Below are positions 39,628 to 64,000 of a stretch of 64,000 nucleotides of DNA, piece after piece; position 1 is the stretch's first letter, and every line of letters begins with the position of its first letter. The notes under the pieces were generated by a model. The model did no database searches. It was not told the origin of the DNA and saw nothing but the letters and a program-made list of their open reading frames with translations. Source of the DNA: Vicinamibacteria bacterium (GTDB lineage: Bacteria > Acidobacteriota > Vicinamibacteria > Marinacidobacterales > Marinacidobacteraceae); the NCBI GenBank assembly GCA_963555995.3, contig OY821641.1, forward strand, positions 1,120,001-1,184,000, read 5' to 3'. Position numbers and translations under genes: made by a program.

Positions 39628-39810
39628 AACAGTCTGTGGAGAAAGTGACGCGGGCACCGAGAGCGGCGAGGCGCCCGGCTGACGAGGCGCGCGAGGGAGG
39701 AATACCGAGTGTATTCCGACCGAAACGCAACGATGAGGGCCGCGTAGCGGCGCGTTTCAGCCGGGATGGATCGCCGCTCGAATGCCGGGTGACTTTTTTC
39801 ACAGGCTGTT
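39628..39810. mobile_element. MITE-like element (family 2)
   Basis: Imperfect TIRs AACAGTCTGTGGAGAAAGT / ACTTTTTTCACAGGCTGTT; internal GGAATACCGAGTGTATTCC hairpin shared with the 54.9-55.2 kb element; no transposase. Confidence 0.75.
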
Positions 39811-51471: not shown

Positions 51472-51624
51472 ATGACAGTCACCGCCGTGTTGAGCGCAAA
51501 GGAAATCGCCGCCATCGGTGCAATCGTCATCGTTGGCATGGTGGCCCTTGTCGGGATCGGGCGGGCCACCCAATCCAACCCAACAGGAGATCTGAAGCAG
51601 AATGAGCAAGATCATCGGTATTGA
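51472..51624 (+). CDS. Putative 50-aa single-TM protein upstream of and overlapping dnaK
   Basis: GAGGAG SD then [50 protein letters not shown]; below the ORF-track cutoff. Confidence 0.5.
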
Positions 51625-53533
51625 TCTGGGGACGACCAACTCGGTGGTCGCCGTGATGGAGGGCGGACAGCCCACCATCATCCCGAACGCCGAGGGCGGC
51701 CGCACGACCGCGTCGGTCGTCGGCGTTTCGAAGTCCGGCGAGCGCCTGGTCGGCGAGGTCGCGAAGCGGCAGGCGATCACCAACGCCGCGAACACGGTGT
51801 TCTCCATCAAGCGGTTCATGGGCCGCCGCTACGACGAGGCCGCCGACGAGCGGGAGTCCGCCCCGTACCAGGTCCTCCGGAAGGACGACGGCGGCATCGA
51901 GGCGCTGCTCGGCGACAACAAGTACACGCCGCCACAGATCTCGGCGATGGTGCTCCAGAAGATGAAGGCCTCGGCCGAGGCCCACCTCGGCGGGAGCGTC
52001 GAGCGGGCGGTCATCACCGTCCCCGCCTATTTCAACGACTCGCAGCGTCAGGCCACCAAGGACGCCGGCGAGATCGCCGGACTGGAGGTGGTGCGGATCG
52101 TCAACGAGCCGACCGCCGCCGCGCTCGCCTACGGGCTCGACAAGCAGAAGAGCGAGAAGATCGCGGTCTACGACTTCGGCGGCGGGACCTTCGACATCTC
52201 GATCCTCGAGGTCGGCGAGGGGGTGGTCGAGGTCCGTTCCACGAACGGAGACACCTATCTCGGCGGCGACGATCTCGACAAGCGGGTGATGGACTGGATC
52301 GTCGCCGAGTTCCGGAAGTCCGACGGGATTGACCTGTCGAAAGACCGGATGGCGCTGCAGCGTCTCAAGGACGCCGCCGAAAAGGCCAAGATCGAGCTCT
52401 CGACCACCCACGAGACCGAGATCAACCTCCCCTTCATCACCGCCGACGCCTCCGGGCCGAAACACCTGGCGCTCACCCTGTCGCGGGCGCGGCTCGACGC
52501 GCTGATCGGAGACCTGCTCGAACGCACCCGCAAGCCCTGCCTCCAGGCGCTGGAGGACGCCGGGCTCGCGGAAGGCGGCATTGACGAGGTCGTGCTGGTG
52601 GGCGGCTCGACCCGGATCCCCCGGGTCCAGGAACTCGCCAAGGAGATCTTCGGGGCGGAACCGCACCAGGGCGTGAACCCGGACGAAGTGGTCGCGCTCG
52701 GCGCCGCGATCCAGGCCGGCGTGCTCGGCGGCGACGTCAAGGACCTGCTGCTGCTGGACGTGACGCCGCTGTCCCTCGGGATCGAGACGCTGGGCGGGGT
52801 CTTCACCTCGCTCATCAAGCGCAACACCACGATTCCGCACCGGGCGAGCGACGTCTTCTCCACCGCGAGCGACAACCAGACGCAGGTCGAGGTGCACGTC
52901 CTCCAGGGCGAGCGCTCCATGGCCGCCGACAACCGCACCCTCGGGAAGTTCAACCTGGTCGGCATCCCGCCGGCCCCCCGCGGGGTGCCGCAGATCGAGG
53001 TGGCCTTCGACATTGATGCGAACGGCATCGTCAACGTCTCGGCGAAGGACCGGGCCACCGGCCGCGAACAGGCGATCACCATCACCGCCTCGAGCGGGCT
53101 CTCGAAGGACGAGATCGAGACCATGAAGGCGGAGGCCGCCTCCAACGAGGAGGCCGACAAGACGCGGAAGGAAGAGGTCGAGTTCCGCAACGAGACGGAT
53201 TCCCTCGCGCACCAGGTCGAGAAGACCCTGAACGAGAACCGCGACAAGATCGAGAGTTCGGACGCCGAGGAGATCGAAAAGGCGCTGGCGACGGTGCGCG
53301 CCGCGCTCGCCGACGGCGACATGGAACGGATCCGGGCGGGGCGTTCCGAAGTGGAGAAGGCGAGCCACCGGCTGGCGGAGGTCATGTACAAGAAGACCTC
53401 CGAGACCGACGGCGCCGCCGGGGCCCAGGATCCGGCCGCCCCGCCGCCCCCTCCGCCGCCGGGCGGAGGCAAGCGCAAGGGCAACGGCGCGGCGGACGAC
53501 ATCATTGACGCGGAGGTCGTGGGCGACAACTGA
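51602..53533 (+). CDS. dnaK: Chaperone DnaK
   Basis: [42 protein letters not shown]. Confidence 0.99.
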
Positions 53534-53565
53534 CGCGATCGCCAACGCCTGCCTCCCGGCGCGAA

Positions 53566-54687
53566 ATGCCCCCGCCCGCCGATTACTACGCGGTCCTGGG
53601 GGTCGGGCGCGACGCGGACGTCCCGCGCATCCGGCAGGCGTACCGGCGGCTCGCCCGGCGCCTCCACCCCGACCTGAACCCCAACGACCGCGTCGTCGAG
53701 GAGCGGTTCCGGCAGATCCAGCGGGCCTTCGAGATCCTGGGTGATCCCGACCGCCGCGCCGAGTACGACCGGCACGGCGGGGCGGAGCCGGCCCCCGCGC
53801 GGGTCCAGCGGGTGCACTACGGGTTCGCCGGGTTCGACTTCGGCGAGGCGCCCGCGAAGGAGGAGTGGGCGCTCCACGAGATCTTCGGCGGATCCGAGGG
53901 TTCCGAGTCCGGATCCGCCGAGGCCGATCCCGACATCCACGCCCGCGAACGGATCTCCTTCGTCGAGTCGCTGGAGGGCAAACAGGTCCGGCTGCGCGTG
54001 AACCGCCGGGAGATCTGCGGCCCCTGCGGGGGACGGGGAGAACGCCCGGTCGGGGAAACGGCGCCCCAGGGAATCGAGTGCACCGCCTGCGGCGGCGCCG
54101 GCCGCCGGCTCCGGCGCTACGGGCACATGGTGTTCGCCCGTCCGTGCCGGCGCTGCGGCGGGCAGGGGACGCTGTTCCACACCGCCTGTTCCTCCTGCGG
54201 GGGGCGCGGCAACCGGGTCCGGTCGGTCCGGGTGGTCGCGCGGGTGCCCGCCGGGGTCTCCGACGGAGCGACGGTGGTCGTGGACGGTCAGGGGCACGAG
54301 CGGCTCCCGGGCGAGCCGGTCGGAAACCTCCGGCTGCACGTCGAGGTCGCTCCCCATCCGGTCCTCGAGCGCCGGGGCGACAACCTCGTCTGTCCCCTGC
54401 CGCTGACGCTCGCGGAAGCCACGCTCGGGGGACGCGTCGAGGTTCCCACGCTTGCCGGGAACGTCGCGGTGCGGCTGCCGCCCGGAGTCCAGCCGGGCAC
54501 CCGGCTGCGGCTCGCCGGGCGCGGCGTCCCCTCGATCCGCGGGGACGGCCGCGGCGACCTCTTCCTCGAGGTACGGATCCACATCCCGGAGATCCGGGAC
54601 GACCGGTCGCGGGACCTGGTCCGCGAGCTGGAGGAGCGTTACCCGGAGTCGCCTCGCGACGCCCTCCGTGAGAAGCTTCGCCAATAG
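53566..54687 (+). CDS. dnaJ: Chaperone DnaJ
   Basis: J domain with HPD, four CxxCxGxG repeats, C-terminal domain. Confidence 0.94.
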
Positions 54688-55180
54688 CAGCCCGTGGAAA
54701 AAGCACCCCGCACCGTTTCCGAAGGGATCGGCGCACCGACTCTGTCACTGTTCGCGGGTGCGGGGTGCTTTCCCCACGGGTTGATGGCGCGCGGCGCTGC
54801 GCGCTGCGCGCCATCGTTTTTCGTGGGGAGGGGAAACCCCTCCCCACACCTCTCCCCCGCGGCGCTGCGCGCCGCGAAGGGGCGGTGGCAGACTTTCTCC
54901 ACCCAGCAGCCTGTGGACAAAGTCACGCGGCATTCCCGAGCCAAGAGGGATAGGAGCCGGGTGAACCCGTCCCCTGTCCCTCTCGCTCCGGGGTCTGCGC
55001 GGGGCTCACGCCCCGCTAACGACGCGAACGCCGATGCATCCCGCCCGAACCGCGCCTCTACGAGGCGCTCTGCGTTGCGTTTCGGTCGGAATACACTCGG
55101 TATTCCTCTCTCACGCGCCTTGTCAGCCGGGCGCCTCGACGTTCTCGGTGCTCACGTCACTGTATCCACAGGCTGCTAGC
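54685..55180. mobile_element. Nested/tandem MITE-like elements (family 2)
   Basis: CAGCCCGTGGAAAAAGCACCCCGCACC..GGTGCGGGGTGCTTTCCCCACGGGTTG arms, then CAGCCTGTGGACAAAGT..ACTGTATCCACAGGCTG with a GGAATACACTCGGTATTCC hairpin; flanked by TAG / CTAG. Confidence 0.75.
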
Positions 55181-55194
55181 AGCCGGTCCCGACA

Positions 55195-55632
55195 ATGAGC
55201 GCCGAGCGCCGGAAGGGCGTCTACATGATCAGCGCGGTGGCCGAGCTGTTCGGCATCCACCCGCAGACGTTGCGGCTCTATGAGCGCGAGGGCCTGCTCC
55301 GGCCGTCGCGCACCGAAGGGAATACCCGCGTCTATACCGACGAGGACCTCGAACAGTTGCAGACCATCCTCAACCTCCGGGAACTCGGGGTGAATCTCGC
55401 CGGCGTGGACATCATCCTGAACATGCGCGCGAAGATGCAGCGGATGCAGGAGGAGATCACCCAGTTCACCGATTTCGTGCACCGGGAGCTGTCGCGGGAG
55501 GACAACGCGTTGAGCGAGCGCGCCAGGAACGCGCTGGTCCGGCTGCCGCGGAAGGACATCGTCCCCGCCGGTCCGGGTGCGGACGCGGGACCGGCGGGCG
55601 ACGCGGCGCCGTCCCGTCCCCGAAGTTCGTAG
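55195..55632 (+). CDS. hspR: HspR-like MerR-family heat-shock repressor
   Basis: YMISAVAELFGIHPQTLRLYEREGLLRPSRTEGNTRVY..LGVNLAGV; follows dnaK-dnaJ. Confidence 0.9.
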   Translation: MSAERRKGVYMISAVAELFGIHPQTLRLYEREGLLRPSRTEGNTRVYTDEDLEQLQTILNLRELGVNLAGVDIILNMRAKMQRMQEEITQFTDFVHRELSREDNALSERARNALVRLPRKDIVPAGPGADAGPAGDAAPSRPRSS

Positions 55633-62259: not shown

Positions 62260-63000
62260 CTATCCGCGTTTCTTCCCGCCGCCCAGAATCGCGGCGCGAA
62301 GCGCCCGCGACTGCTCCGAAAACCAGGTGTCCAGGAACCCTTCCCGCTTCTCGGCGGCCTGGCTCAGGGCCCGCTCCGCGAACCCGGCGCGGAGTTCCCG
62401 CTTCGTGTGGGTGTACGCCTCGCGAGGAAGGGCCCCCAGCTCTTCGGCCCGCTCCGCCGCCCGCTCCGCCAGGTTTCCGGGTTCGGCCAGTTCGTGAAGG
62501 AAGCCGTTCGCGAGGGCGTCCTCGGGTCCCGTGAGCCGGCCGCGCAGGAGCACCTCCGCGGTCCGCTCCGGCGGAATGGCCGCCCGCAGGACCTCGAAGG
62601 CCGCCGCCGGAAAGATGACCCCGAGCTGCACTTCGGAGACGCCAATCCGATAGGCGCCGGTGGCCCCCATCCGGACGTCGCAGGCGGCCGCGAGGATCGC
62701 GCCGCCCGCCACCGCGTGGCCGTTCACCGCGGCGACGGTGGGGCAGGGGAAGAGGAAGAGCCGGCGGACGAGCTCGTCGAAGGCTTCGACGAACGCGCCC
62801 ATCGCGTCGCGGTCCTCCGGCAGTCCCGCGAGATCGAGACCCGCCGAAAAGAAACGGCCCGTTCCGGTCAGGACCAGCGGCCGGCCGCCCGCTTCGGCTT
62901 CATCGAGGCTCGCCCCCAGTTCGGCGACCAGCGCCGGGTCGAGGGCGTTCGCCGGCCCGTGGCGCATGGCGGCCACGAGGGCCGACGGCGCGGACGACAC
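62260..63000 (-). CDS. Enoyl-CoA hydratase/isomerase family protein
   Basis: ANALD, FFSAGLDL, AAVNGHAVAGG, GVSEVQLG (single catalytic Glu, isomerase-like). Confidence 0.92.
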   Translation of the reverse strand: MSSAPSALVAAMRHGPANALDPALVAELGASLDEAEAGGRPLVLTGTGRFFSAGLDLAGLPEDRDAMGAFVEAFDELVRRLFLFPCPTVAAVNGHAVAGGAILAAACDVRMGATGAYRIGVSEVQLGVIFPAAAFEVLRAAIPPERTAEVLLRGRLTGPEDALANGFLHELAEPGNLAERAAERAEELGALPREAYTHTKRELRAGFAERALSQAAEKREGFLDTWFSEQSRALRAAILGGGKKRG

Positions 63001-63025: not shown

Positions 63026-63655
63026 TTACTCGAGTCCGGCCAGGACTTCCATCAGCGGTTCGTAGTCCTCACGGATCTGGTAGTCGTAGTTGACGTACTG
63101 GAGGACGCCCTCGCGATCGATCACGAAGGTCGCGCGCGAAGCGTAGGTCGCGCCGTTGATCTCGAGCGGGGTCACGCCGTAGGCGCCGACGACCTCCGCC
63201 TGGCGGTCCGAGAGCAGCACCAGTCCCGGCAGTTCACCCTCGGCGGCCGGCGCCACCATCATTCCGGATTCCTCGCCCATGTTCTGGAGCCAGTTCCACT
63301 GGGAGAAGGGGGTGTCCACGCTGATTCCGAAGACCTGGGTGTCCGCATCCAGAAACTTCTGGATGTCGTCCTTGTAGGACGAGAACTGGAGCGTTCAACC
63401 ACCCGTCCAGTCGGCCACGTAGAAGGCCAGCACGATGTTCTTCCTGCCCAACGCGGCGCTCATGTCGAGCTTCGCCGCGCCCGGCGATTCGCCCGCGGTG
63501 GAGGGCAGCGGATTCGGGAACATGGGCGCCTTGTCTCCCACCCGGAGCGAGACGTCCTGCGCCACGGCCTCAGGAATCCCCGCGGCCGCGGCCAGCCCGG
63601 CAACGAGCCCGAGGGCCAGGACGCCGGACAGTCGGCGGCTCTTGATGTGTTTCAT
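63026..63655 (-). CDS. Exported AhpC/TSA peroxiredoxin with in-frame UGA at the peroxidatic site (probable selenoprotein)
   Basis: ORFs 63395..63655 and 63026..63319 share a frame and join as VLAFYVADWTGG-(TGA)-TLQFSSYKDDIQKF..VFGISVD..LLSD..SRATFVID. Confidence 0.88.
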
Positions 63656-63846
63656 GGAGAACCTCCCTCGGTTGCGCCATCTGGTTCGGAGTGCGGATCA
63701 TGCCCGCTGGCCGTGCCTCCCGCAAGGGTGGCGCTTTCGGCCGTTGCCGCGGTACGGCGCCGAGCCTCCTCGGCCGCGCGGACCAGGCGCCGGCGGTGCT
63801 ATTCTGATTCGCTCGGTTCTCGTTCCAGAAAGGCTCCCAGGCACCC

Positions 63847-64000
63847 GTGACACTGTCCTTCCGCGCCCGCCTCGAGGCGGAAGTGCGCGAACTCGAGGAA
63901 GAGCTGCACCTGCGGCTTCCCCAACAGATCAAGGAGGCCCGCGAGCACGGCGACCTTTCCGAGAACGCGGAGTACGAGGCCGCGAAGGACCGGCAGAGCT
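63847..64000 (+). CDS. greA: Transcription elongation factor GreA/GreB (partial)
   Basis: Translation ..LPQQIKEAREHGDLSENAEYEAAKDRQ. Confidence 0.92.
   Translation, partial: MTLSFRARLEAEVRELEEELHLRLPQQIKEAREHGDLSENAEYEAAKDRQS

Follow-up and report, generated by a model that had tools for sequence, protein, structure and literature searches.

A predicted exported, cysteine-free selenoprotein with a peroxiredoxin fold from marine Acidobacteriota, and the two abutting hairpins behind its UGA codon

The minus strand of the window, by which we mean the whole stretch of 64,000 nucleotides that was analysed, carries close to its end a peroxiredoxin-like gene whose reading frame contains a TGA codon (Table 1). 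A first-pass annotation, made from the letters of the DNA, had placed this TGA at the peroxidatic position and had described a product of 209 residues without Cys that runs on to the catalytic Arg. Both statements have stood, as in alignments with solved peroxiredoxins codon 87 falls on the peroxidatic Cys, and the translation of 63026-63655 gives the frame in question, with SRATFVID encoded 3' of the TGA in the same 209 codons. Neither a sigma-70-like promoter nor a terminator has been detected at the gene. It is flanked by a diverging gene (63850-64000, plus strand), which we take to be greA-like, and directly downstream by a gene on its own strand (62260-63000), presumably crotonase-like. 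Both neighbours have been found at 24 of 24 loci, which marks the gene as a stable resident of this place and leaves no reductant gene adjacent to it.

Table 1. Features of the selenoprotein locus, with positions in the window listed in the order of transcription
Feature	Position	Strand	Basis
Likely ribosome-binding site	63661..63669	-	Purine-rich, holds GGGAGG a few bases 5' of the ATG (sequence)
Peroxiredoxin-fold selenoprotein gene	63026..63655	-	ATG to TAA, 209 codons, one in-frame TGA, no Cys codon
Predicted signal peptide, residues 1-32, cleavage predicted after AVA	63560..63655	-	Sequence features
Val80, replacing Pro of Pxxx(T/S)xxC	63416..63418	-	Val in 33/33 orthologues; Pro in three aligned solved structures
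Thr84 of TxxU	63404..63406	-	33/33 orthologues
In-frame TGA, codon 87, peroxidatic position (inferred Sec)	63395..63397	-	Context FYVADWTGG-U-T
Ser92, +5 position	63380..63382	-	Ser in 33/33; second Cys of CxxxxC in homologues P0029, P0038, P0043
Hairpin 1, inferred spacer	63366..63382	-	7 pairs including closing U-A, starts after 12 nt, loop at 19 nt
Hairpin 2, inferred SelB-binding SECIS	63346..63365	-	8 pairs, loop AGUU (63354-63357), 37 nt after UGA
Arg174, conserved catalytic Arg (SRATF)	63134..63136	-	33/33; invariant in 74-row alignment

Elsewhere in the window, three genes in a row (51602-55632, plus strand), presumably dnaK-, dnaJ- and hspR-like, form an ordinary heat-shock cluster. 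An intergenic stretch at 54691-54960 has given 31 blastn matches in the host genome (G000), six of them of at least 150 nt, and a similar stretch lies just 5' of selB; it probably represents a family of miniature mobile repeats. A dispersed repeat able to sit within coding sequence has been found in the orthologue of genome G008 (L036 / L064), where an in-frame insertion of ~190 nt lengthens the predicted signal peptide and adds no stop. The inserted sequence has 129 blastn matches in G000, including window positions of about 39642-39808 and 54903-55167.

Orthologues of the gene have been found in 34 of 61 related genomes at 59-100% identity (E ≤ 2.5e-70, the next best match being at 1.3e-12), and among 251 sampled genomes of the class they are confined to one order, whose three families possess the gene in 26 of 27, 4 of 8 and 3 of 19 genomes. 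Each of the 34 carries one TGA and none has TGC; the position of the codon, read in 33 distinct sequences including that of the window and in one more, is always the catalytic one. Where 33 orthologues are counted below, these are the 33 distinct sequences, and ten metagenome loci, which had been found by means of the hairpin pattern itself, have been left out of every count of conservation. Amino-acid change per column is alike on either side of the TGA (2.46 before, 2.55 after). An alternation of TGA and TGC, which the first-pass annotation had proposed as a check, has not been seen among the orthologues, and Cys stands at the site only in distant homologues: the protein collection holds no full-length close Cys homologue, and the 24 full-length matches among 3955 candidates, all 37-41% identical, have Cys (20) or Trp (4) at the peroxidatic site.

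The second check, a search for selABCD or a tRNA with UCA anticodon, has been positive. The host genome (3.8 Mb, 70% GC, 93% complete) encodes selA (489.7 bits), selB (297.1 bits) and selD (247.4 bits) above the curated cut-offs, together with a single tRNA-Sec with UCA anticodon (69.7 bits). All 34 orthologue-bearing genomes have selA, and 33 of them have tRNA-Sec, the exception being 75% complete; as selA also occurs in 58 of the 61 relatives, including most of those in which the gene is absent, this co-occurrence does not discriminate and speaks for compatibility only. SelD (L011, G000:C1 2909235-2913173) has Cys instead of Sec and carries at its N-terminus a long fused domain, which we assume from its appearance to be flavin oxidoreductase-like. 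A genome-wide scan of TGA inside coding-like sequence has yielded seven further genes with TGA at a redox-motif position, all of which match their own Pfam families when read through, two of them also passing NCBIfam selenoprotein models. Because the candidates have been chosen by eye from longer lists, eight Sec genes in G000 are a lower bound. The eight that were found are all of thiol-redox types: the genes of an exported Prx-like UxxC protein and of an OsmC-like protein are adjacent and have a canonical SECIS each (L162, L163; G000:C1 1619481-1621317), and the remaining five lie at G000:C1 840497+ (DCC1-like), 1335270- (CYCXC family), 3698142+ (AhpD-like), 3532433+ (Trx7/PDZ) and 1885614- (rhodanese).

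Two hairpins downstream of the UGA had already been noticed in the first-pass annotation, and both have been found where it placed them, with the correction that the second is one pair longer, so that the stems abut with zero bases between them. The 58 nt from the UGA onwards fold with -24.2 kcal/mol (z = -4.63), and none of 200 shuffles has been equally stable. Over codons +5 to +16 of the 33 orthologues, 5 synonymous changes have been seen against 38.7 expected from amino-acid-matched columns (0 of 200,000 resamples, a figure that serves as a guide rather than a formal test, given the small control pools for some residues), and in the flanks synonymous change is normal (52 against 56.7 expected and 68 against 63.9 expected). 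All five changes concern a Tyr codon whose third base lies inside loop 1. The stem cells of the orthologue alignment are paired in 405 of 405 cases; among the 15 stem pairs 12 are invariant, 3 vary on one side, to G-U, and two-sided compensatory changes are absent, so that the structure rests on conservation and energy. A lower stem between +1 to +5 and about +73 to +77, seen in one single-sequence fold, has been rejected, being absent from the consensus structure and accompanied by normal synonymous change in codons +17 to +30. A search of Rfam has given no SECIS match, only a chance sRNA match (E 0.24).

The lack of G in the first loop had led the first-pass annotation to consider a non-canonical SECIS. 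Loop 1 is indeed free of G in every one of the 33 orthologues (ACA 26, AUC 3, AUA 2, ACC 2) and fails the G rule of the published bacterial model, which describes a loop of 3-9 nt, a stem of 4-16 bp, G in the first two loop positions, a stability of ≤ -7.5 kcal/mol and a spacing of 16-37 nt from UGA to loop (PMC13188914). Hairpin 2, however, agrees with the model in all four structural points, having a 4-nt loop, an 8-bp stem, G then U at loop positions 2-3 and -10.4 kcal/mol, and its spacing of 37 nt is the upper limit of the published range. Consequently, the oddity of the element is its position and tandem layout and not the lack of a canonical loop: the model is a single stem-loop, whereas here a second conserved, G-less hairpin occupies the gap and abuts the SECIS hairpin. 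Atypical bacterial SECIS elements have been acknowledged (PMC13188914, PMC12013277, PMC10778597), and our literature search, which covered mainly openly accessible papers, has found no description of a tandem-hairpin SECIS.

Sec might also be inserted with hairpin 1 and its G-less loop as the binding site of SelB, hairpin 2 being accessory. The distance of loop 1 would be the usual one, as the seven other Sec genes of G000 have their loops at 18-25 nt; its stem is conserved, with none of the 5 synonymous changes of the hairpin 1 region (21.5 expected) falling within it; and among 29 distant Sec-peroxiredoxins 3 have no G-loop hairpin in a strict scan, and L166, a distant exported Sec-peroxiredoxin, has a G-less ACA loop in its best fold. 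Some bacterial SECIS elements are also described in reviews as lying outside the model (PMC13188914, PMC12013277). Against this stands the free variation of loop 1, with four forms in 33 sequences, where loop 2 is AGUU in all 33. Coding constraint by itself would also go far less towards explaining the second stem, since of 20,000 random synonymous recodings 11% retain stem 1, whereas 0.6% retain stem 2 and 0.09% the two together. Moreover, the loops of the seven other targets are all of the G[G/U] type, and SelB of G000 retains the SRK stretch of the RNA-binding domain of solved SelB structures, presumably the part that reads the G of the SECIS loop, as in a canonical recognition stretch. We therefore regard hairpin 1 as an unlikely site for SelB, and the AGUU loop of hairpin 2 as the probable one.

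The protein itself, read through the TGA, matches PF00578 with 79.1 bits (cut-off 26), and its AlphaFold model has a peroxiredoxin fold at a mean pLDDT of 92.5, with an inserted loop of low confidence at about residues 91-110. The best sequence matches among solved structures are Sulfolobus Bcp4 (3hjp, E 3e-13) and 2ywn (E 1e-12), with which the catalytic residues align, and the fold matches those of Bcp4 (best) and of the one-Cys proteins Prx6 and AhpE at TM 0.74-0.79; these structures differ in that they are only about 20-30% identical, have Cys and not Sec, keep the motif Pro and have no signal peptide. Thr84, the Sec87 site and Arg174 are invariant in the 33 orthologues, and the mature domain is without Cys in all of them, so that there is no resolving Cys. 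The first-pass annotation was silent on the exchange of Pro for Val in the active-site motif. This Pro is called absolutely conserved in peroxiredoxins in PMC4749874, which also reports one-Cys forms in all six subfamilies. As it is absent here, seven residues before the peroxidatic residue, the protein has been filed as a variant predicted to work like a peroxiredoxin.

No NCBIfam peroxiredoxin model has reached its cut-off (best 50.7 bits against 211); the PrxU model NF040737 has given 41.6 against 270, and the BCP/PrxQ model NF006960 42.9 against 140; the closest structures are Bcp-type. In the tree the orthologues form a clade with a support of 100/99 on a long branch. Joining it with the clade of the other exported Acidobacteriota proteins is rejected by the AU test at p = 0.036, a weak result, for three long rows were left out and the group was named after the tree had been seen. 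Among the 41 Sec rows 38 lack Pro, compared with 11 of the 135 Cys rows, but the rows are kin. A loss of Pro in adaptation to Sec is not borne out, as independent pairs give a median p of 0.5 and Pro is retained in six more Sec-peroxiredoxins from the class and order, of which three have N-termini resembling signal peptides.

If the selenoprotein served chiefly as a redox relay or sensor, handing oxidation on to a partner, and the scavenging of peroxide were not its main task, the absence of both Pro and resolving Cys would be accounted for. Consistent with such a role are Val in the place of Pro and the missing second Cys, each in all 33 orthologues, the long branch and the failure of every subfamily model. 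It is nevertheless quite improbable in view of the invariant Thr, Sec site and Arg and of a fold held in common with Bcp4, Prx6 and AhpE. It is further opposed by the occurrence of one-Cys forms throughout the peroxiredoxin subfamilies (PMC4749874) and by a second Acidobacteriota Sec clade with Val at the same position.

A route other than Sec, which had also been raised for the UGA, would be its decoding as Trp, Cys or Gly through an alternative code or a suppressor tRNA. Four database homologues indeed have W at the site (P0003, P0004, P0006, P0010); these are exported peroxiredoxins whose genome counterparts have TGA, and the W is likely the product of a wrong translation table, which is the simplest explanation of it. 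TGA is the main stop of G000, terminating 777 of 1206 gene-like long frames, release factor 2 is encoded, the tRNA with UCA anticodon is the tRNA-Sec, and three orthologues end in TGA as the true terminator at the homologous C-terminus, all of which makes such a decoding highly improbable.

The databases hold the gene in pieces. The best matches in the 50% library are fragments; among the 120 listed of 152 short homologues, 54 are N-terminal pieces, every one of which ends exactly at DWTG[GT], and 66 are C-terminal pieces, Cys being found in none; and the two halves from the window itself have been deposited as separate proteins of 86 aa and 97 aa. Contigs from three RNA studies cross the TGA site unbroken, and among the 40 of 75 differences that are listed none falls there; these contigs stem from relatives at 90-96% identity, reveal neither strand nor level and so are no measure of expression. 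The two deposited proteins might suggest a pair of small genes with a genuine stop between them, and the first-pass annotation would have concluded on a nonsense mutation or an error of sequencing from a genome devoid of Sec machinery with TGC in all close homologues. These readings can be dismissed, since the machinery is present, the TGA stands in 34 of 34 orthologues of three families down to 59% identity with equal conservation on both sides, a stop would cut the fold at the catalytic residue, and the RNA contigs pass the site in one piece. The proposal of a one-Sec peroxiredoxin that gene callers have split, its export being predicted from sequence, has been corroborated on four sides, by the machinery, the unbroken conservation of TGA, the distant Cys homologues and the stored halves, and the gene is almost certainly a real selenoprotein gene.

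The prototype of the Sec-peroxiredoxins is PrxU of Eubacterium acidaminophilum. Sec is exceptional among peroxiredoxins (PMC7231847), and the TxxU peroxiredoxins figure as a family in catalogues of selenoproteins (PMC13188914, PMC9312934). With this family the present gene shares PF00578, TxxU, one UGA at the peroxidatic site, a downstream SECIS and a selABCD genome; it differs in a predicted signal peptide, in Val replacing the Pro of PxxxTxxU, in a Cys-free mature protein and in a tandem-hairpin SECIS. A resemblance also exists to PprX of Caulobacter crescentus, a periplasmic BCP/PrxQ protein, which has been compared by its published description (PMC3322552): a predicted signal peptide precedes a small peroxiredoxin domain, and a TlpA-type thioredoxin is a plausible donor. 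PprX, however, is a Cys enzyme that also has a resolving Cys and an unaltered PXXXTXXC motif and that is supplied by ScsB, whereas here there are Sec, no Cys and a short CcdA-type protein. The other exported Acidobacteriota peroxiredoxins (FY[VI]xAFTGGU, FYPAAFTGGC) are alike in the predicted signal peptide, in TGG-U/C and, in the Sec forms, in Val for Pro, but are only 41-48% identical to the protein, form a separate clade in trees and retain in 25 of 25 Sec forms a C-terminal Cys that is absent here.

A widespread second clade of exported Acidobacteriota Sec-peroxiredoxins (L127-L155) combines Val at the Pro position with a Cys near the C-terminus. In a 45-row, unrooted tree, Cys/Pro forms nest within this clade, which may reflect a reversion from Sec to Cys. 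For the distant Acidobacteriota Sec-peroxiredoxins one hairpin is the rule, 23 of 29 having a G[G/U]C loop at 23 nt, in difference to the tandem found here. Four of the distant genes (L132, L141, L146, L166) have no G-loop hairpin in the strict scan or in the best fold, L132 folding as a 7-bp stem with an 11-nt loop and L166 with the ACA loop mentioned above; these are possible further atypical SECIS forms. A literature search, mainly of openly accessible papers, has found no description of an exported Sec-peroxiredoxin or of an Acidobacteriota selenoprotein, though supplementary selenoproteome tables may list such genes.

The prediction of export is based on a basic N-terminus, a 12-residue hydropathy of 2.5 and AVA followed by Q at residues 30-33, and by pattern a hydrophobic 12-mer (hydropathy ≥ 1.5) and an AxA-type site ahead of the mature domain have been found in 33 of 33 orthologues. 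Twin-arginine export is not supported, the N-terminal RR being absent from many orthologues. The single PF02683 gene of G000 encodes a short CcdA-type protein and adjoins a gene for a TlpA-like CxxC lipoprotein. By analogy with the ScsB-TlpA-PprX route of Caulobacter (PMC3322552), we infer that a TlpA-type thioredoxin with a CcdA-type carrier would be the likeliest electron source.

For the account as a whole, namely an intact gene whose UGA is read as Sec and whose product is a predicted exported, Cys-free enzyme of peroxiredoxin fold that likely reduces envelope peroxides, we estimate a probability of about 0.85. With a frame conserved on both sides of the UGA and a cell provided with SelA, SelB, SelD and tRNA-Sec, the codon would be read as Sec after SelB has bound, as is probable, the AGUU loop of hairpin 2. 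The first hairpin would stack on the second, and since it takes up 17 nt, the AGUU loop would come to lie ~20 nt-equivalents from the UGA, within the range of 18-25 nt that is used in this genome. The signal peptide would be cut after Ala32 and the protein is predicted to reach the periplasm, where, going by peroxiredoxin chemistry, the selenolate of Sec87, positioned by Thr84 and Arg174, would attack the peroxide and be converted to selenenic acid. Reduction must come from another molecule, as there is no resolving Cys; a TlpA-type envelope thioredoxin fed by the CcdA-type membrane carrier is the foremost candidate and has about an even chance of being the actual reductant, with the two exported thioredoxin-fold selenoproteins of G000 as alternatives. 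The complete proposal joins both halves: a two-helix SECIS, in which the G-less spacer hairpin at the mRNA entrance of the ribosome stacks and brings the loop at 37 nt to SelB, would serve an exported peroxiredoxin without Cys and motif Pro, whose chemistry would rest solely on selenium and which would need a reductant of the envelope. In this full form we hold it to be equally apt to prove right or wrong.

As the class of enzyme is already known, the gene is mainly a repair of annotation in one order of marine, partly sponge-associated Acidobacteriota. Its departures from the known kind are the lack of Cys, the lack of the motif Pro, and a probable twin-hairpin SECIS whose reading loop would stand at the limit of the range. 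If the spacer model is true, it would explain why a SECIS loop still functions when its spacing is at the upper end of 16-37 nt and would give a concrete class of atypical bacterial SECIS; Sec would have been acquired without altering the helix residues that a SECIS at the usual position would overwrite, and the layout would offer a design option for placing a SECIS within coding sequence at the cost of fewer residue changes. A natural peroxiredoxin that has Sec only and is without the Pro would be a clean case for the recycling of selenenic acid in an oxidising envelope and for the role of the Pro.
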